From Ruminococcus albus 7 = DSM 20455 (GTDB lineage Bacteria > Bacillota > Clostridia > Oscillospirales > Ruminococcaceae), in NCBI RefSeq assembly GCF_000179635.2, contig NC_014824.1, forward strand, positions 90,001 to 122,000: a stretch of 32,000 nt of DNA, given 5' to 3'. Made by a program: the position numbers and the translations under genes. Under the pieces are notes generated by a model, which was given only the letters and a program-made list of their open reading frames with translations, had not been told where the DNA came from and did not search any database. Shown piece by piece: positions 9,508 through 17,449 of the stretch; the stretch's first letter is position 1, and each line of letters starts with the position of its first letter.

Positions 9508-9638
9508 TCTGATCGAAATTTATTAAGGTTTAGATCCAACTCTACTCCATGTTATCAAGTAATAGAGCTGTTTTTATTATAGAAGGAATTTTTACGTGAT
9601 ATAAGCACTCTATAATAAAAAATATACCTACGGTTTAC

Positions 9639-9667
9639 TTGATTTTTTCTTGTAGATATGATATAAT
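9639..9667 (+). promoter_or_regulatory. Promoter of tRNA module 1
   Basis: TTGATT, 17-nt spacer, TGaTATAAT (extended -10). Confidence 0.65.
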
Positions 9668-9699
9668 GACCACAACATCAAAGAAAGGAGAAAACCGAG

Positions 9700-9828
9700 A
9701 TGAATAAGTTCACTGTTTCATATCTGTATAGCGAATCATTATTGAGCCTCGTCCTCGAATCGGAAGAGACTTCTTTTGTGCTGCGTACAGATAAAGTGGA
9801 TGAACATTTCGGGATTTCTTGTTTCTAA
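9700..9828 (+). CDS. Mini-ORF 1 (42 aa), candidate leader peptide: MNKFTVSYLYSESLLSLVLESEETSFVLRTDKVDEHFGISCF
   Basis: SD aaaggag lies 8 nt upstream of the ATG. The ORF lies between a consensus promoter and an intrinsic terminator. Codons 7-23 are almost exclusively Ser/Tyr/Leu/Glu. Confidence 0.6.
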   Translation: MNKFTVSYLYSESLLSLVLESEETSFVLRTDKVDEHFGISCF

Positions 9829-9851
9829 GTATTATTGATCCTTGTAAGTGA

Positions 9852-9886
9852 AACACCGTCTGTTTGCAGCAGGCGGTGTTTTTGTT
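9852..9886 (+). terminator. Intrinsic terminator / attenuator 1
   Basis: aacaccgtctg (9852-9862) pairs with caggcggtgtt (9870-9880). Loop tttgcag, followed by tttgtt. Confidence 0.75.
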
Positions 9887-9888
9887 AT

Positions 9889-9983
9889 GCCCATGTGTAT
9901 GAACGTTATCACCATAGTTGATAACTGGCATACATTTATGTTTTAGAAACAGGCTTTTTGGGGTTCGAGTCTCCCCACGGGTA
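9889..9983 (+). other. tRNA-like element (95 nt) with a canonical T-arm and acceptor end but no canonical anticodon arm; possibly a degenerate class-II tRNA
   Basis: T-arm tgggg-TTCGAGT-ctccc. Acceptor gcccatg/cacgggt has one A-C mismatch. Possible D-stem tatg/cata. I could not fold a 5-bp stem with a 7-nt anticodon loop. Confidence 0.3.
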
Positions 9984-9991
9984 TTATTTTT

Positions 9992-10066
9992 GCGGGATTG
10001 GCGGAACAGGCATACGCGACGGTCTCAAATACCGTTTTATTCAGGGTTCGACTCCCTGATTCCGCA
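9992..10066 (+). tRNA. tRNA with anticodon CAA (Leu) but a short (~6 nt) variable region
   Basis: Acceptor GCGGGAT/ATTCCGC plus A73. Leu-type D-arm TGGCGGAACAGGCATACGC. Anticodon stem ACGGT/ACCGT with loop CTCAAAT. T-arm CAGGG-TTCGACT-CCCTG. Total 75 nt. Confidence 0.7.
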
Positions 10067-10073
10067 TTTATAT

Positions 10074-10146
10074 GCTCTCGTAGACCAACGGCAGAGTGAA
10101 CGGACTTAAACCCCGTGTAGTGTGAGTTCGAATCTCACCGGGAGCA
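10074..10146 (+). tRNA. tRNA with anticodon UAA (Leu), class-I length, weak D-stem
   Basis: Acceptor GCTCTCG/CGGGAGC plus A73. Anticodon stem ACGGA/CCCGT with an A31-C39 mismatch, loop CTTAAAC. T-arm GTGAG-TTCGAAT-CTCAC. Only 2-3 bp of D-stem could be drawn. Confidence 0.55.
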
Positions 10147-10181
10147 TCAGGATCAATATACTTAGAAAGGAGATGTTTTCA

Positions 10182-10406
10182 ATGCCGGTGATAGACGTCA
10201 AAGCAACAGGAGCGAATATTAAAGCTATAATGAAAATGAAGGGCTTCAAGATCGCTGATGTTCAGGCAAGGTGCGGTTTCAATACTCCGCAGGCTATTTT
10301 CAAGTGGCTGCGTGGAGACGCTGTGCCAACTATAGATAATATGATAATCATAGCCGATATGTTCGGCGTGACTATCGATCAGATAGTTATAATCAAGAAG
10401 ATCTGA
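10182..10406 (+). CDS. Small XRE-family helix-turn-helix protein (74 aa), embedded between tRNA genes
   Basis: SD aaaggag, then ATG 10182. Sequence MPVIDVKATGANIKAIMKMKGFKIADVQARCGFNTPQAIFKWLRGDAVPTIDNMIIIADMFGVTIDQI. Roughly half of its residues match the protein at 11429-11659 by eye. Confidence 0.8.
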   Translation: MPVIDVKATGANIKAIMKMKGFKIADVQARCGFNTPQAIFKWLRGDAVPTIDNMIIIADMFGVTIDQIVIIKKI

Positions 10407-10430
10407 CTGTTATTGCGGTAACAGTCATAA

Positions 10431-10502
10431 GGCTGCATCGTCTAATGGTCAGGACACAAGGTTTTCAACCTTGAAACGTGGGTTCAACTCCCACTGCGGT
10501 CA
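10431..10502 (+). tRNA. tRNA-Glu (UUC)
   Basis: Acceptor GGCTGCA/TGCGGTC. D-arm GTCTAATGGTCAGGAC. Anticodon stem CAAGG/CCTTG with loop TTTTCAA. T-arm GTGGG-TTCAACT-CCCAC. Confidence 0.8.
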
Positions 10503-10567
10503 TTAATTCATCCGTATATGACATCAGCTATATTATAAGTATTCAAAAAAAATATTTCCATCCTTAA

Positions 10568-10596
10568 TTGACTTTTCGGGGATTTTCTTATATAAT
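10568..10596 (+). promoter_or_regulatory. Promoter of the gene at 10648-11094
   Basis: TTGACT, 17-nt spacer, TATAAT. Confidence 0.55.
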
Positions 10597-10647
10597 TAAA
10601 TAAGAATATTGTATTACTTATTTGAGATAATGAAAGGATGTTTTCTT

Positions 10648-11094
10648 ATGTCCATAGATAAAAGAACCGAAATGATCCTAAAAAAAGAGTCATTGACTAT
10701 ATTCAATCAGTTTTGTTCAAAACTGCCATCGGAGTCTTTAGGTCTGTTAATGATGTATCTGCAAAAGTTCAATGACGATAATCCTGATAACGGAACCATT
10801 GTTTTTACTAAAAAAGAATATGAAAAGAAGCTGGGAAATGAAGAAATATCAATCGATGAAATTCAGGACGGCATTCCAGATTTACTAGGTCCGGTAAGAT
10901 TTAAAGGCGATATTCAAATAATGTTTTCTATGTTCATAAGCATTAATATCAGGAAAATAAGCAATGAATATTCAATATTTATGACCTGCAGTGATATTGC
11001 AAAGGATTATATCTTTACCGATCCAAATGTTGCAAAGTATAATTTTATAGACGAGATAAAGAGAAGAATAGACGAGTTAACAAGTATAATGTAG
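10648..11094 (+). CDS. Hypothetical protein (148 aa); only a vague resemblance to winged-helix replication-initiator N-terminal domains
   Basis: SD aaagga, then ATG 10648 (MSIDKRTEMILKKESLTIFNQF...). No motif I can name with confidence. Confidence 0.55.
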   Translation: MSIDKRTEMILKKESLTIFNQFCSKLPSESLGLLMMYLQKFNDDNPDNGTIVFTKKEYEKKLGNEEISIDEIQDGIPDLLGPVRFKGDIQIMFSMFISINIRKISNEYSIFMTCSDIAKDYIFTDPNVAKYNFIDEIKRRIDELTSIM

Positions 11095-11107
11095 CTTACA
11101 AAGCTAC

Positions 11108-11136
11108 TTGACAATTCTCTTTATGAGTGTTATAAT
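11108..11136 (+). promoter_or_regulatory. Promoter of tRNA module 2
   Basis: TTGACA, 17-nt spacer, TGtTATAAT (consensus, extended -10). Confidence 0.7.
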
Positions 11137-11196
11137 CAGTTACAACAAGAGGGGAGCAACGATCTCCCGAAATTATATTACGAAAGGGTGAAAACA

Positions 11197-11334
11197 ATGA
11201 ATTCTATCATGAACAATACTGTTGTCAGATCATATGATGATTACCAGTGCTTCTTTAGCTTTAGTTTTGATTGGCAAGACGAAGGCTTATTTGTGCTGCA
11301 TACGAACACCGGTAATTGTTCAGTTCAAAGATAG
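11197..11334 (+). CDS. Mini-ORF 2 (45 aa), candidate leader peptide: MNSIMNNTVVRSYDDYQCFFSFSFDWQDEGLFVLHTNTGNCSVQR
   Basis: SD aaagggtg. The ORF lies between a consensus promoter and an intrinsic terminator. Codons 13-28 read YDDYQCFFSFSFDWQD. Confidence 0.6.
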   Translation: MNSIMNNTVVRSYDDYQCFFSFSFDWQDEGLFVLHTNTGNCSVQR

Positions 11335-11366
11335 AGTTTATTGACCATCTTCTGAGAGAATATGAC

Positions 11367-11407
11367 CGCCTGTATGTAGTGCAAACTCATACAGGCGATT
11401 TTTTATT
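11367..11407 (+). terminator. Intrinsic terminator / attenuator 2
   Basis: Perfect 10-bp stem cgcctgtatg / catacaggcg with an 11-nt loop, followed by attttttatt. Confidence 0.8.
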
Positions 11408-11428
11408 CTATCGGAAGGTGGTATTATT

Positions 11429-11659
11429 ATGACTGAAGAGATGCCTGTCATAAATATGACAGCGACAGGTTCCAATATAAAGACTCTTATAAAAGCAAAA
11501 GGTTTTAAAGTGACAGAGCTTCAGAACATTCTGGTGTTCAACACACCTCAGTCCATATTCAAATGGATGAGAGGGGAGTCCATACCCTCTATCGACAATC
11601 TGGTGATTCTGGCACATATACTGAATGTCACCATTGATGAGATAATAATCCTTAACTAA
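11429..11659 (+). CDS. Small XRE-family helix-turn-helix protein (76 aa), paralog of 10182-10406
   Basis: SD aaggtgg. Sequence MTEEMPVINMTATGSNIKTLIKAKGFKVTELQNILVFNTPQSIFKWMRGESIPSIDNLVILAHILNVTIDEI. Confidence 0.8.
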   Translation: MTEEMPVINMTATGSNIKTLIKAKGFKVTELQNILVFNTPQSIFKWMRGESIPSIDNLVILAHILNVTIDEIIILN

Positions 11660-11684
11660 TACGTCCTGTTCATTCAGGACACAC

Positions 11685-11758
11685 GGCTCCGTAGTTTAAC
11701 CGGCTAAAACACCGGCCTGTCACGTCGGAGAGCGCGGGTTCAAGTCCCGCCGGAGTCG
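11685..11758 (+). tRNA. tRNA-Asp (GUC)
   Basis: Acceptor GGCTCCG/CGGAGTC plus G73. Anticodon stem CCGGC/GTCGG with loop CTGTCAC. T-arm GCGGG-TTCAAGT-CCCGC. Confidence 0.85.
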
Positions 11759-11764
11759 TCATAA

Positions 11765-11835
11765 TTCCGTTTCGTCTAGTGGTAGGACATCGGTTTCTGA
11801 CACCGAAAACGGGAGTTCAAATCTCTCAGCGGAAA
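11765..11835 (+). tRNA. tRNA-Gln (CUG)
   Basis: Acceptor TTCCGTT/AGCGGAA (U1-A72). Anticodon stem TCGGT/ACCGA with loop TTCTGAC. T-arm GGGAG-TTCAAAT-CTCTC. Confidence 0.8.
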
Positions 11836-11841
11836 TAATTT

Positions 11842-11912
11842 GACTGTGTAGCCAAGTGGAAAGGCTGTCGGCTGCAACCCGACGAGCGTAGGTTCGATCC
11901 CTATCACAGTCT
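11842..11912 (+). tRNA. tRNA-Cys (GCA)
   Basis: Acceptor GACTGTG/CACAGTC plus U73. Anticodon stem GTCGG/CCGAC with loop CTGCAAC. T-arm GTAGG-TTCGATC-CCTAT. Confidence 0.85.
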
Positions 11913-11922
11913 TTAATCACAT

Positions 11923-11995
11923 GCCTCTGTAGCTCAGTTGGTAGAGCGTATGCCTGAAGAGCATAGCGTCGCAAGTTCGATTCTTGCCGGAGGCA
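11923..11995 (+). tRNA. tRNA-Phe (GAA)
   Basis: Acceptor GCCTCTG/CGGAGGC. D-arm TAGCTCAGTTGGTAGAGC. Anticodon stem TATGC/GCATA with loop CTGAAGA. T-arm GCAAG-TTCGATT-CTTGC. Confidence 0.9.
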
Positions 11996-12017
11996 CTTGT
12001 AAAAGTACAAATGTTTT

Positions 12018-12046
12018 TTGAATATCACAAATGTTATCTGTACTAA
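12018..12046 (+). promoter_or_regulatory. Possible internal promoter between tRNA-Phe and tRNA-Gln(UUG)
   Basis: TTGAAT, 17-nt spacer, TACTAA. A weak hairpin ttgta-aaag-tacaa plus a T-run (11997-12019) precedes it. Confidence 0.3.
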
Positions 12047-12048
12047 AT

Positions 12049-12120
12049 TTCCGTTTCGTCTAACAGGCAGGACAACAGACTTTGACTCTGTCAATGGGAG
12101 TTCGATCCTCTCAACGGAAG
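12049..12120 (+). tRNA. tRNA-Gln (UUG)
   Basis: Acceptor TTCCGTT/AACGGAA plus G73. Anticodon stem ACAGA/TCTGT with loop CTTTGAC. T-arm GGGAG-TTCGATC-CTCTC. Confidence 0.85.
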
Positions 12121-12127
12121 CTAATAA

Positions 12128-12204
12128 GTCTCTATTACAAATTATGTATTGAAATTCTATCGGGTATCATCTTTAGAATTCAAGGAGTAGTTTGTAATAG
12201 AGAT
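12128..12204. repeat. 77-nt bipartite hairpin in the spacer between tRNA-Gln(UUG) and tRNA-Trp
   Basis: Outer arms gtctctattacaaa (12128-12141) / tttgtaatagagat (12191-12204). Inner arms aattcta / tagaatt. Confidence 0.6.
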
Positions 12205-12213
12205 GATAGAAAT

Positions 12214-12285
12214 AGGAGAATAGTTCAATGGCTAGAATGACGGTCTCCAAAACCGTAGATCTCAGTTCGACTCTGAGTTCTCCTG
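12214..12285 (+). tRNA. tRNA-Trp (CCA)
   Basis: Acceptor AGGAGAA/TTCTCCT plus G73. Anticodon stem ACGGT/ACCGT with loop CTCCAAA. T-arm CTCAG-TTCGACT-CTGAG. Confidence 0.85.
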
Positions 12286-12302
12286 TCTATACTACAGGTT
12301 TA

Positions 12303-12331
12303 TTGAAATCTGTACTAAGTTATGTTATAAT
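12303..12331 (+). promoter_or_regulatory. Promoter of tRNA module 3
   Basis: TTGAAA, 17-nt spacer, TGtTATAAT (extended -10). Confidence 0.7.
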
Positions 12332-12363
12332 GTCATTAAAGAAATCAAGAAAGGAAGTTCATT

Positions 12364-12456
12364 ATGAAAAACACAGTATTTGCATTCTCATATTCATATA
12401 GTTATTCAAGCGTTGTTCAGAAGAATAAGGCTCGTTTGGCTATGCGTGAATGTTGA
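12364..12456 (+). CDS. Mini-ORF 3 (30 aa), candidate leader peptide: MKNTVFAFSYSYSYSSVVQKNKARLAMREC
   Basis: SD aaaggaag lies 7 nt upstream of the ATG. The ORF lies between a consensus promoter and an intrinsic terminator. Codons 9-16 read SYSYSYSS (tca tat tca tat agt tat tca agc). Confidence 0.6.
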   Translation: MKNTVFAFSYSYSYSSVVQKNKARLAMREC

Positions 12457-12482
12457 TACTGCTTGATGATAAGCTTCAGCAT

Positions 12483-12520
12483 ATACCGTTTGGCTTTCGG
12501 GTCAGGCGGTATTTTTATTT
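12483..12520 (+). terminator. Intrinsic terminator / attenuator 3
   Basis: ataccgtttggc pairs with gtcaggcggtat (12 bp including G-U pairs). Loop tttcgg, followed by ttttatttgtt. Confidence 0.75.
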
Positions 12521-12527
12521 GTTATTC

Positions 12528-12613
12528 GGGAGAGTCACCCAGCGGCGAGGGCAGCGGTCCGTAAAACCGTGACATTAGAAACATCGAAGGTTCGAGTCCT
12601 TCCTCTCCCACCA
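12528..12613 (+). tRNA. tRNA-Tyr (GUA), class II, CCA encoded, C at position 33
   Basis: Acceptor GGGAGAG/CTCTCCC, then A and CCA. Anticodon stem GCGGT/ACCGT with loop CCGTAAA. Long variable arm. T-arm GAAGG-TTCGAGT-CCTTC. Confidence 0.8.
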
Positions 12614-13560: not shown

Positions 13561-13678
13561 ATAAATTTTCTTGTATAATAATATTGTAGATAATAATTAA
13601 TAACTGGAGGTCAGACAGATCAAATAATACTACTAATATAACACTATGGAACATAAAGCCATAAAAGGAGTGAACACT

Positions 13679-14797
13679 ATGGCAAACAAAGCATTTAAAT
13701 TCAGAATATACCCAAATAACGAGCAAAAGGTTTTGTTTGCCAAAACCTTCGGCTGTGTGAGATTGGTATATAACTATTGGTTATACAAAAAGATCAAGCA
13801 GTATAAAGAATATGAGACAACTTTAAATTACAATGCTTGTGCCAAAGAAATGGCTGAACTTAAGAAAATGGAGAAATACTCATTCTTACGGGAAGTGGAC
13901 AGCGTATCATTGCAGCAGTCGCTTCGACACCTGGATACAGCGTTTCAGAACTTCTATAAACAGCCTAAAACAGGATTTCCCAGGTTCAAATCAAAAAAAT
14001 GTAAAAAGAACAGCTATTCTACCGTTTGTATCAATGGTAACATAGCCATATCCAATGGATACTTGAAATTACCTAAAGTCGGACAAGTCAAAGTAAAACA
14101 GCACAGGAACATTCCTAATGAATATGTTCTCAAGTCTGTGACAGTAAGTCAGACTCCAAGCGGAAAATACTATGCAAGTATTCTGTATGAGTACGAAAAC
14201 CAAGTACAGGAACAGGAACTGCATGACTTCTTAGGGCTTGACTTTTCGATGCACGAGCTGTACAAAGACAGCAACGGCAATGAACCGGCTTACCCCGGAT
14301 ACTACAGAAGAGCTGAAAAAAAGCTAAAAAGAGAACAAAAAAAACTTTCTCTTATGCAGAAAGGCTCTAAAAACCGTGATAAACAACGTATCAAGGTTGC
14401 TAAAATGCATGAGAAAGTTGCAAATCAACGAAAGGACTTTCTACATAAACAGTCAAGACAGATAGCCAATGCCTATGATTGTGTATGTATAGAAGATCTA
14501 AACATGCAAGCAATGTCTCAGGCACTTAAATTCGGCAAGTCGGTTTCAGATAACGGCTGGGGAATGTTTGTAACATTCCTGAAGTACAAACTGGAAGAGC
14601 AAGGCAAAAGGCTTGTAAAGATAGATAAATTCTTTGCGAGCAGTCAGACTTGTTCGTGCTGTGGATACATCAATAAGGAAACAAAGAACCTTGCTATAAG
14701 AGCATGGGACTGTCCCGAATGCGGAACTCACCATAACAGAGATGTAAATGCTGCAATAAATATAAGAAATGAAGGTATGCGTATAGCATTAGCGTAG
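13679..14797 (+). CDS. tnpB: TnpB RNA-guided endonuclease (IS200/IS605 OrfB family), apparently intact
   Basis: SD aaaggag, then ATG 13679 (MANKAFKFRIYPNNEQ...). RuvC residues are present: LGLDFS (D), CIEDLN (E), HNRDVNAAINI (D). Zinc finger CSCCG...CPECG. Confidence 0.9.
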   Translation: MANKAFKFRIYPNNEQKVLFAKTFGCVRLVYNYWLYKKIKQYKEYETTLNYNACAKEMAELKKMEKYSFLREVDSVSLQQSLRHLDTAFQNFYKQPKTGFPRFKSKKCKKNSYSTVCINGNIAISNGYLKLPKVGQVKVKQHRNIPNEYVLKSVTVSQTPSGKYYASILYEYENQVQEQELHDFLGLDFSMHELYKDSNGNEPAYPGYYRRAEKKLKREQKKLSLMQKGSKNRDKQRIKVAKMHEKVANQRKDFLHKQSRQIANAYDCVCIEDLNMQAMSQALKFGKSVSDNGWGMFVTFLKYKLEEQGKRLVKIDKFFASSQTCSCCGYINKETKNLAIRAWDCPECGTHHNRDVNAAINIRNEGMRIALA

Positions 14798-16123: not shown

Positions 16124-17449
16124 ATGCAGATATATACGACTTACAGCGTTAAGATCAAGCATTACAACAACATCTTTAAAGATACCGTTATCGTATACAG
16201 ACATGCTGTAGATTACCTTATCAGCGTTTGTCTGGATCATTGGGATAACATTGTTACATTCAAAGGGGTGAGTAGACTCACATATATTGAAACACTGATC
16301 CATGCTACAAAAGATAATCCCGATCCAATTTATGATTTTGATGCCAAATTCTATAAGATGCCAAGCTATCTGCGCCGTGGTGCAATCAACGAGGCTATAG
16401 GCAAGGTATCATCTTACAAAAGCAATCTCGATAACTGGATCAAAGATCCGGTCGGAAGAGAACCATCGCATCCAAAAGCAGGTTATTCATTCCCGTCTAT
16501 GTATCGTACAGGAATGTACAATCAGACCGGTGATTATACTGCCCAGATCAAAGTCTACATCCGTAATACATGGGACTGGATAACGATAAACCTTAAAAAG
16601 TCTGATATGGATTATATATACAGACATTGCCGCTTACGCAAACAATGCGCTCCAACACTTCAAAAACGAGGCAAGGAGTGGTTTTTGGACTTTCCGTTTG
16701 AGGAAAAGGTCAAACTTGCAGATATATCTGTGTATGAACAGACCATTGTTGCTGTAGATCTTGGTATCAACACTGCCGCTACGGTTTCCGTAATGCGTTC
16801 AGATGGCACTATTCTTGGAAGGCATTTTTGTAAGCTTACCAAAGAAACAGACCATCTGATGCATAGCATTAACCGTATAAAAAAAGCTCAGCAGCATGGT
16901 AACTATAAAACACCAAGGCTTTGGGCAAAAGCCAAAGGCATCAATCACGACATTGCCATAAAAACTGCGAACTGCATCGTAAATATAGCTGTTCTTTATA
17001 ATGCAGATGTTATTGTATTTGAGCATTTAGACAAGAACGGTAAGGTCCGCGGTTCTAAAAAGCAGAAACTCAAGCTGTGGCGCAGTCAGGAAGTTCAGTC
17101 TATTGTAACGAATAAAGCTCACAGACTGGGTATGAGAGTAAGCCATATCTGTGCATGGAATACGTCACGCCTTGCCTACGATGGCAGTGGTTTTGTACTT
17201 CGTGGTAAATTCGGTGGTTTCAATACCTATGAGCTATGCAAATTTCAAAATGGCAAGTCCTACAACTGTAATCTATCTGCTTCGTATAATATTGGGGCAA
17301 GATATTTCATACGTGAAATATTAAAATCCTTGGATGAGAATTCAAGGTTGCTCATTGAGGCAAAAGTACCTCAATGCAGTAAGAGAAGCACCTGCACGTT
17401 CTCTACCTTAGTTAACCTGAATGCGGAAATTATTGCTCAAACAGCATAA
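16124..17449 (+). CDS. TnpB-related protein (441 aa) with an atypical RuvC-III / zinc-finger region
   Basis: SD ggaggga, then ATG 16124. RuvC-I IVAVDLGIN and RuvC-II DVIVFEHLD are present. The position aligning to RDVNAAINI reads CNLSASYNI (Asn instead of Asp). The CxxC...CxxC cysteines are replaced by LAYDGSG ... CKFQNGKSYNC. Confidence 0.75.
   Translation: MQIYTTYSVKIKHYNNIFKDTVIVYRHAVDYLISVCLDHWDNIVTFKGVSRLTYIETLIHATKDNPDPIYDFDAKFYKMPSYLRRGAINEAIGKVSSYKSNLDNWIKDPVGREPSHPKAGYSFPSMYRTGMYNQTGDYTAQIKVYIRNTWDWITINLKKSDMDYIYRHCRLRKQCAPTLQKRGKEWFLDFPFEEKVKLADISVYEQTIVAVDLGINTAATVSVMRSDGTILGRHFCKLTKETDHLMHSINRIKKAQQHGNYKTPRLWAKAKGINHDIAIKTANCIVNIAVLYNADVIVFEHLDKNGKVRGSKKQKLKLWRSQEVQSIVTNKAHRLGMRVSHICAWNTSRLAYDGSGFVLRGKFGGFNTYELCKFQNGKSYNCNLSASYNIGARYFIREILKSLDENSRLLIEAKVPQCSKRSTCTFSTLVNLNAEIIAQTA

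Follow-up and report, generated by a model that had tools for sequence, protein, structure and literature searches.

A 14-nucleotide sequence shared by leader reading frames of Ruminococcus albus tRNA operons as a probable antiterminator strand of a ribosome-mediated attenuator

Can a short sequence repeated in two otherwise dissimilar leader reading frames decide whether the tRNA genes behind them are transcribed? The question is raised by a stretch of 32,000 nucleotides from Ruminococcus albus 7 = DSM 20455 (contig NC_014824.1, positions 90,001 to 122,000 of the forward strand), referred to here as the window. It carries, on the plus strand, three tandem units, each consisting of a sigma-70-like promoter, a Shine-Dalgarno (SD) sequence, a short open reading frame (ORF), a strong intrinsic terminator, and tRNA genes. 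The first two units (modules 1 and 2) share a 14-mer within their leader ORFs, and an original prediction made from the sequence alone had proposed it as a candidate antiterminator strand. That proposal is supported by complementarity to the terminator in 75 of 75 homologous units, by covariation, by unanchored RNAalifold analysis, and by the minimum free energy (MFE) folds of the nascent RNA of both modules. The reading that we favor, with a probability of roughly 0.8, is a transcription attenuator of the ribosome-mediated (leader-peptide) kind that gates the tRNA operon, with the 14-mer serving as its region 2, or antiterminator strand. Promoter use, leader translation, termination, and the response to tRNA supply are what we infer from the sequence.

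A repeated 14-mer is complementary to the terminators downstream

The two copies of the 14-mer, at 9775-9788 (TTTGTGCTGCGTAC) and 11290-11303 (TTTGTGCTGCATAC), proved to be identical at 13 of 14 positions and to read in frame as F-V-L-(R/H)-T, just as had been described. When up to one mismatch was allowed, neither strand of the window contained any further match; dinucleotide shuffles gave a mean of 0.01 matches, and none of 100 gave two. Both copies sit in the 3' part of their ORFs, right after runs of codons (SYLYSESLLSLVLESEE in module 1 and SYDDYQCFFSFSFDWQD in module 2) that match the identities of the downstream tRNAs.

The pairing core, UGCUGCGUACAGAU and UUUGUGCUGCAUACG in the window and CUGCRYACAG in its family form, is complementary to the upper 5' arm and the loop of a terminator lying 55-85 nt further 3'. 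The four pairings previously found by eye (TGCTGC/GCAGCA, ACAG/CTGT, TGCTGCATAC/GTATGTAGTG, and CTGTAT/GTACAG) are all present but are pieces of longer helices. In module 1, positions 9779-9785 pair with 9865-9871 (7 bp, one G.U) and positions 9787-9792 pair with 9858-9863 (6 bp, one U.G), giving a helix of 13 bp with a U.U mismatch at 9786 x 9864 and an RNAduplex energy of -20.2 kcal/mol. The module 2 helix, 11290-11304 x 11371-11385, has 15 contiguous pairs, four of them G.U (-18.7 kcal/mol, RNAduplex). These energies are on par with those of the terminator hairpins of modules 1 and 2 (-18.9 and -18.8 kcal/mol, respectively). Regions are numbered below as in the trp attenuator, so that the pairing of the 14-mer with the terminator arm is the 2:3 helix. 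The elements of the two modules are as follows.

Module 1
9639-9667, plus strand: promoter-like site, TTGATT-17-TATAAT with an extended TG, inferred from a consensus scan
9686-9690, plus strand: SD sequence AGGAG, 9 nt 5' of the ATG, read from the sequence
9700-9828, plus strand: leader ORF 1 (predicted), 42 codons, MNKFTVSYLYSESLLSLVLESEETSFVLRTDKVDEHFGISCF, with a Leu/Glu/Ser-rich run at codons 7-23
9721-9732, plus strand: region 1, UAUCUGUAUAGC, Y-L-Y-S codons, a candidate anti-antiterminator whose partner is 9780-9793 in the MFE fold of the untranslated leader
9775-9792, plus strand: region 2, the 14-mer (9775-9788) plus 4 nt, with pairing core 9779-9792 as the putative antiterminator 5' strand
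9858-9871, plus strand: region 3, the target of region 2, comprising the upper 5' arm, the loop, and the first 4 nt of the 3' arm of terminator 1
9850-9886, plus strand: intrinsic terminator 1, a 15-bp stem (9850-9864 / 9868-9882) followed by a U-tract, -18.9 kcal/mol
9991-10502, plus strand: genes behind terminator 1, namely, tRNA-Leu(CAA), tRNA-Leu(UAA), a 74-amino-acid HTH_3 protein (10182-10406), and tRNA-Glu(UUC)

Module 2
11108-11136, plus strand: promoter-like site, TTGACA-17-TATAAT, a 12/12 match in the consensus scan
11185-11191, plus strand: SD-like sequence AGGGUGA, kept across leaders of the Gln/Cys/Phe class, from the sequence and the alignment
11197-11334, plus strand: leader ORF 2 (predicted), 45 codons, MNSIMNNTVVRSYDDYQCFFSFSFDWQDEGLFVLHTNTGNCSVQR, with an Asp/Tyr/Gln/Cys/Phe/Ser/Trp run
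11290-11304, plus strand: region 2, the 14-mer plus 1 nt, the putative antiterminator 5' strand (15-bp helix in the nascent-RNA MFE fold)
11371-11385, plus strand: region 3, comprising the upper 5' arm, the loop, and the first nucleotide of the 3' arm of terminator 2
11367-11407, plus strand: intrinsic terminator 2, stem 11367-11397 and then AUUUUUUAUU, -18.8 kcal/mol
11429-12287, plus strand: genes behind terminator 2, namely, an HTH_3 protein (11429-11659), tRNA-Asp, tRNA-Gln(CUG), tRNA-Cys, tRNA-Phe, tRNA-Gln(UUG), and tRNA-Trp

The helix is conserved and covaries in homologous loci

The aligned HTH proteins of the two modules served as the query in a scan of genomes, each species being represented by one. 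The scan gave 80 loci, all from rumen Ruminococcus (R. albus and R. flavefaciens) or other Oscillospiraceae, and in nearly all of them tRNA genes adjoin the HTH gene. About 75 of the 80 have a unit upstream made up of an SD sequence, a leader of 34-66 codons, the motif, a terminator, the small HTH gene, and tRNA genes. Outside the motif, leader ORFs 1 and 2 have diverged beyond recognition; the motif itself is kept across many species and three leader classes, in the C-terminal part of the leader, in the versions FVLRT, FVLHT, IVLHT, VLLRT, VVLHT, FVLYT, IVLCT, FVLRA, and IVLHP. The terminator 5' arm is strongly conserved (..CCGTCTGT(A/G)TGCAG..). The SD sequence and the frame are conserved in the ~75 loci; in aligned leaders that are otherwise very divergent the start codon is conserved as well, and insertions and deletions come in multiples of three.

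For each of the 75 units tested, we looked for the 20-nt leader segment with the strongest pairing to the 5' arm and loop of the terminator, starting 30 nt ahead of the start codon and ending at the terminator; in every unit this segment overlaps the motif. The cognate duplexes averaged -20.5 kcal/mol, against -8.4 ± 3.1 for shuffled motifs. The pairing is also specific to each unit, since cognate combinations of motif and terminator (-20.56 kcal/mol) were more stable than permuted ones (-18.70 ± 0.29), and none of 5,000 permutations was as good.

For covariation, we aligned 52 distinct rows as two pieces at fixed offsets, one of 20 nt placed at the motif and one of 18 nt counted from the invariant CG(T/C)(C/T)TG in the arm of the terminator. 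An 11-bp core, CUGCRYACAGR / YCUGURUGCAG, is paired in 92.1% of the cells of this alignment; registers slid along it gave 11-61%. Five of the 11 core pairs change on both sides, in 30 cells, compared with 10.9 ± 5.4 after shuffling of columns (0 of 500 shuffles as high). The key pair joins the wobble base of motif codon 4 to the R of GURUG and is U-A in 25 rows and C-G in 22. When RNAalifold was given 36 contiguous, unanchored sequences running from the motif to the terminator loop, the sole structure that it returned was the core helix, with 8 pairs, 4 of them compensatory.

A scan of viral contigs with the pattern GCTGCRYACA-N58-88-CCGTCTGT yielded 56 matches, of which 55 lack a terminator-like continuation and look like chance matches; the remaining one (L113) is a real module.

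The constraint acts on nucleotides rather than on the peptide

The shared F-V-L-(R/H)-T could, in principle, be what selection preserves, as a nascent-chain arrest sequence of the erm or cat type or as some other functional peptide, with the complementarity to the terminator being secondary or coincidental. Both window leaders and the majority of homologs do share one reading frame through the motif, and positions 1 to 3 of the motif stay hydrophobic, as this explanation would have it. The codons speak against it. Synonymous third positions are nearly invariant: the Leu of codon 3 is CTG in 70 of 71 cases (40% elsewhere in these leaders), the Thr is ACA in 65 of 68 (30% elsewhere), the Val is GTG in 50 of 53 (11% elsewhere), and the Arg is encoded only by CGT or CGC and never by AGR. 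Codon 4 exchanges the chemically unlike residues R, H, Y, and C, all with YRY codons, as pairing with G-U-R demands.

Changes that alter the peptide are, moreover, matched in the terminator. A change of ACA to CCA (T to P) in L009 is accompanied by CUGUG to CUGGG, ACA to GCA (T to A) in L005 is accompanied by CUGCAC, and CRU to UGU (H/R to Cys) in L062 is accompanied by GUACA. The peptide is broken in L010 (FVLHD), L011 (LVLRS), and L024 (VLLRI), with most pairs kept, and L008 keeps the complementary strand UCAUGCACACGGG but encodes S-C-T-R. The original prediction had named loss of complementarity under a conserved peptide as the outcome that would point to a peptide function. What the homologs present is the opposite, in their frozen synonymous sites, their compensated changes, and L008. 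We conclude from these patterns that the constraint most probably acts on the nucleotides, with FVL(R/H)T as a by-product of the RNA constraint, and we rate a function of the peptide itself as highly improbable.

L008 (3718-3867), from a Ruminococcus metagenome-assembled genome (MAG), has a leader without an FVLRT-type peptide, and no tRNA gene lies 3' of its HTH gene within the DNA stretch examined.

Modeled nascent RNA folds into the 2:3 helix while the ribosome is in the codon run

In nascent RNA without the terminator 3' arm, the 2:3 helix is both the MFE and the centroid structure of the two modules (9767-9871, z = -2.2; 11275-11385, z = -3.7), with folds of -26.7 kcal/mol in module 1 and -31.1 kcal/mol in module 2. 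Once the 3' arm is added, the terminator becomes the MFE structure, at -37.3 and -33.6 kcal/mol, respectively.

We modeled ribosome position in 66 distinct leaders by folding only the RNA 3' of the ribosome, whose 28-nt footprint was taken to end 12 nt past the A-site codon. The modeled probability of the 2:3 helix was 0.7-0.9 as long as the A site lay no further than the last codon of the run; one or two codons beyond the run it had dropped to 0, and in the model a ribosome at the motif or past it abolishes the helix. When complete leaders were folded with no ribosome on them, the motif was sequestered in 18 of the 22 units tested.

The MFE fold of the untranslated module 1 leader also pairs the 5' untranslated region (UTR), including the SD sequence (9677-9700), with the 3' end of the leader ORF (9805-9835). 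Such pairing, if it forms as predicted, could shut off reinitiation after the first ribosome.

Leader codons match the tRNA genes downstream

If the modules are attenuators, the codon run should name what they sense. Among 61 units, the proportion of pre-motif residues with a cognate tRNA gene downstream was 0.353, compared with 0.208 ± 0.015 for permuted pairings of leaders and arrays (0 of 2,000 permutations as high). Three examples illustrate the match.

Leader run ...YLYSEHYEESFYHESEE...: downstream tRNAs Glu, His, Tyr, and Ser
Leader run ...QYVFFAQQFQFRFFRQWQ... (L009): downstream tRNAs Trp, Phe, and Gln
Leader run of window module 2: downstream tRNAs Asp, Gln, Cys, Phe, and Trp

The distance from the last cognate codon to the helix was not used as a measure, being confounded by the Phe and Leu inside the motif. 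Leader-peptide attenuators can respond to the amount of a tRNA, in that loss of one of the two tRNA-Phe genes of E. coli derepresses pheA 6- to 7-fold (PMC3082878).

In the scheme that we favor, scarcity of the cognate aminoacyl-tRNAs would stall the ribosome in the codon run. Region 2 would then pair with region 3 as region 3 emerges, the terminator could not form, and RNA polymerase would read into the HTH gene and the tRNA genes. Given an adequate supply, the ribosome would run over region 2 and the terminator would then form; in the class of module 1, region 1 (the Y-L-Y-S codons) would afterwards recapture region 2. The net effect would be negative feedback, in which poor decoding of the run causes read-through and yields more of exactly those tRNAs.

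A broader proposal, which we hold at slightly better than even odds, is that the attenuators gate the tRNA genes themselves, each array being transcribed according to how well a test string of its own codons is decoded. This would be closed-loop control of each tRNA set, built from a modular, conserved 2:3:4 core and exchangeable runs (Leu/Glu, Glu/His/Tyr/Ser, Gln/Cys/Phe/Asp/Trp, and Tyr/Ser). More speculatively, the modules might be an emergency response to tRNA depletion or damage, an extension suggested by the one locus that has an RNA ligase gene behind such a leader in place of tRNAs. At that locus (L015; also L040), in an Oscillospiraceae MAG, a leader with an Ile-rich run (..AIIIID..) and the motif SLLHT is followed by a terminator, an HTH gene, and then the ligase gene. 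The ligase ORF (781-1836, in a module spanning 254-1836) matches Pfam RNA_ligase at 4.6e-17 and the PHA02142 OB-fold at 9e-34. The locus may link the modules to tRNA repair or damage, but this is speculation.

A 1:2 helix is plausible in one leader class

The original prediction had also suggested a trp-like 1:2 / 2:3 / 3:4 scheme for module 1. In the untranslated-leader MFE fold, the 1:2 helix of module 1 consists of 9721-9729 x 9785-9793 together with 9730-9732 x 9780-9782. In the Leu/Glu and Glu/His/Tyr classes, no upstream segment pairs better with the motif than the Y-L-Y-S codons, at -13 to -20 kcal/mol versus about -9 for shuffles. The scheme is therefore plausible for module 1, on the grounds of conservation and complementarity and with no covariation; in module 2, 2:3 and 3:4 are the only helices with support.

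Two further features of the Gln/Cys/Phe-class leaders, to which module 2 belongs, were seen. A conserved element, CCATCTTCTGATAGAAC, stands directly 5' of the terminator (spacers of L003 to L038; window 11346-11366) and is a possible polymerase pause site. In many of these leaders, moreover, the stop codon of the ORF is surrounded by a hairpin (GCCCTGACAGGGTGAGC).

Weighing the attenuator against other explanations

Several observations count against the attenuator or limit what can be claimed for it. Covariation at the main pair largely separates a few leader clades, and the cell counts overstate the number of independent events, of which at least five were counted. The helix of window module 1 has its internal U.U mismatch. 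At full-length equilibrium the terminator is favored in most units, both window modules included, so that the switch would have to be kinetic. The original prediction had made competitiveness of the helices with the terminators one of its refuting tests; we judge that to be the wrong test, since the terminator wins at equilibrium in most units. The classical trp attenuator is alike in this respect, its 2:3 helix being weaker than 3:4 and its switch not being driven by equilibrium. When the whole transcript was modeled at equilibrium with a 28-nt mask and with pairing across the ribosome allowed, both window modules had a 2:3 helix probability close to 0 at most positions of a stalled ribosome. 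We set this model aside as physically unrealistic, the 5' UTR pairing in it across the ribosome with the tail of the ORF, and the favorable result of the other model depends on the customary premise that the RNA 3' of the ribosome is all that counts.

The arm of the scheme that applies under adequate supply is the least secure. The 1:2 helix of the module 1 class is paired in 90.9% of cells (23 rows), but its columns are near-invariant and show no covariation; the contingency of the Tyr wobble base and codon 4 (10/6/5/2) likewise gave none. No conserved region 1 was found in the Gln/Cys/Phe class, which includes window module 2, and RNAalifold gave a trivial 3-bp stem only. ORFs 1 and 2 run 12-14 codons beyond the motif, the stop codon lies 28-44 nt past the motif, and a ribosome at the stop codon leaves the motif uncovered. 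Termination when tRNAs are replete is thus not fully explained.

This gap leaves some room for a different trigger, in which the alternative folds are real but are switched by the HTH protein, another RNA-binding factor, or a tRNA binding to the leader, translation of the ORF being incidental. The replete arm of the ribosome model is indeed incomplete for module 2, an HTH gene is present in almost every module, and the CGUCUG of the terminator arm is more conserved than pairing alone strictly requires. Against it stand an SD sequence, start codon, and frame that are conserved in divergent leaders with indels in threes, a leader composition that tracks the downstream tRNA set, and the position of the run, whose end is at just the distance from the helix at which a stalled ribosome does not cover it. 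Even at E <= 1 there was no match to the T-box or another Rfam family, and HTH_3 domains as a rule bind DNA. We regard a trigger other than stalling as unlikely. Even less weight falls on the idea that the likeness of the 14-mers reflects paralogy by duplication, or DNA-level sites such as paired HTH operators that happen to invert the terminator arm. The modules are clearly related, to the point that their HTH proteins are 54% identical and their terminator cores similar, but the rest of the leader ORFs has diverged while the motif is kept in many species and in three classes. A change in the motif is met by a compensating change in its partner and not by a copy of itself, a pattern typical of pairing strands and not of a consensus bound by a protein. 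The motif also has a fixed position and orientation relative to the ORF, the terminator, and the U-tract. A test of strand discriminated mildly: 92.1% of cells pair as plus-strand RNA and 88.1% as minus-strand RNA, and G.U cells (52) outnumber the A.C cells (29) that a minus-strand or DNA reading would tolerate, the latter not being rare. We would put very little on this last explanation, and antitermination by region 2 under the control of a translating ribosome is the reading that we retain.

Module 3 and other features of the locus

The third unit of the window lacks the FVLRT motif.

12303-12525, plus strand: module 3, with promoter 12303-12331, leader ORF 12364-12456 (MKNTVFAFSYSYSYSSVVQKNKARLAMREC, which includes ...FSYSYSYSS...), and terminator 12483-12512, followed by tRNA-Tyr and four tRNA-Ser genes

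The stretch most complementary to the 5' arm of its terminator is 12429-12448 (GGCUCGUUUGGCUAUGCGUG, -17.8 kcal/mol). This segment lies in the ORF, 3' of the codon run, and module 3 would therefore follow the same logic with a different antiterminator sequence. Its leader is also carried by locus L002.

The HTH_3/XRE genes at 10182-10406 and 11429-11659 are paralogs (54% identity between the proteins). Across the loci, a small XRE/HTH_3 gene is found in nearly every module, either directly 3' of the terminator or between tRNA genes; that its product is an autoregulator of the module promoters is a guess. Just downstream of the tRNA arrays, at 13646-14797, lies a TnpB/IS605 OrfB-type gene with matches to Cas12f1-like_TNB, OrfB_IS605, and HTH_OrfB_IS605, and a second, weaker OrfB_IS605 match occurs at 16124-17449 of the window.

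Leader 1 is identical in R. albus AR67 (locus L079). In R. albus 7 the exact leader 1 peptide is ADU23823.1, "hypothetical protein Rumal_3363 (plasmid)," from a 420,706-bp replicon, and has no other annotation; the tRNA arrays appear to sit on a megaplasmid. Megablast of the window against phage records matched the tRNA-Asp segment only, and megablast against PLSDB plasmids gave no match.

Relation to known systems

The prevailing view places the control of bacterial tRNA genes mainly at the promoter, through growth rate and the stringent response, and we know of no species-specific feedback on their transcription. If the scheme proposed here is true, a clostridial lineage matches the transcription of at least 10 tRNA families (Leu, Glu, His, Tyr, Ser, Gln, Cys, Phe, Asp, and Trp) to decoding demand by classical attenuation. 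The 14-mer would be the mechanistic linchpin of such modules, as the strand through which stalling of a ribosome leads to read-through. Given the covariation, a few point and compensatory mutations would be enough to test the model. The analysis also supplies a compact, conserved search pattern, CUGCRYACAG...CCGUCUGURUGCAG, for leaders of this kind that are now listed as hypothetical proteins or left unannotated. Full-text searches, in whose coverage most subscription journals are not included, returned no report of a leader-peptide attenuator before tRNA genes. A possible precedent, an attenuator-like leader at a tRNA-Phe gene of E. coli, was not borne out, as pheV of MG1655 has its promoter directly upstream and no leader ORF.

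T-box riboswitches belong to the same phylum (Firmicutes) and likewise report tRNA status through competition between terminator and antiterminator. Unlike the modules, they bind uncharged tRNA directly, need no translation, and control synthetase, biosynthesis, and transporter genes. Rfam 15 scans of 9560-12530, at the gathering score and at E <= 1, matched tRNAs only, with no specifier or T-box sequences; since no other Rfam family matches there, the modules are not T-boxes. The ermC, cat, and mef/msr leaders are similar in that a ribosome stalled in a short ORF remodels the downstream RNA, but there the stall depends on a specific nascent peptide plus a drug, and in the modules the peptide motif is not the conserved entity. 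In E. coli pheM-pheST, a leader-peptide attenuator adjusts part of the translation machinery to how much charged tRNA is available, as proposed here; its target is Phe-tRNA synthetase rather than tRNA genes, it senses a single amino acid, and its sequence is unrelated.

The closest likeness is to the attenuators of amino acid operons (trpL, hisL, leuL, thrL, ilvL, and pheL of Enterobacteria and the ilvB leaders of Corynebacterium and Staphylococcus), with which we found no sequence or Rfam relationship. Of the sequence-level hallmarks of ribosome-mediated attenuation that we tested, all but the 1:2 helix were found in the modules: a leader ORF, a codon run, a terminator, an exclusive 2:3 helix, and the geometry of the footprint model. 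Shared with those attenuators are an SD sequence and a short ORF with a run of regulatory codons, an intrinsic terminator ahead of the regulated genes whose 5' arm (region 3) can pair either with its own 3' arm or with region 2, and a switch that would be kinetic; the class of module 1 adds a candidate 1:2 helix. The amino acid operon attenuators control biosynthetic enzymes, whereas the Ruminococcus modules, which belong to a clostridial lineage, stand before tRNA genes and a small HTH gene. The module runs also differ in mixing codons of several amino acids, to match the mixed set of tRNAs downstream, and region 2 of the modules lies inside the ORF, 4-14 codons before the stop. Finally, one core (CUGCRYACAG / CUGURUGCAG) is common to modules for different amino acid sets. 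The comparison supports viewing this combination, of which we found no prior description, as a known mechanism, ribosome-mediated attenuation, directed at an unusual target, tRNA operons, through a shared core and exchangeable codon runs.

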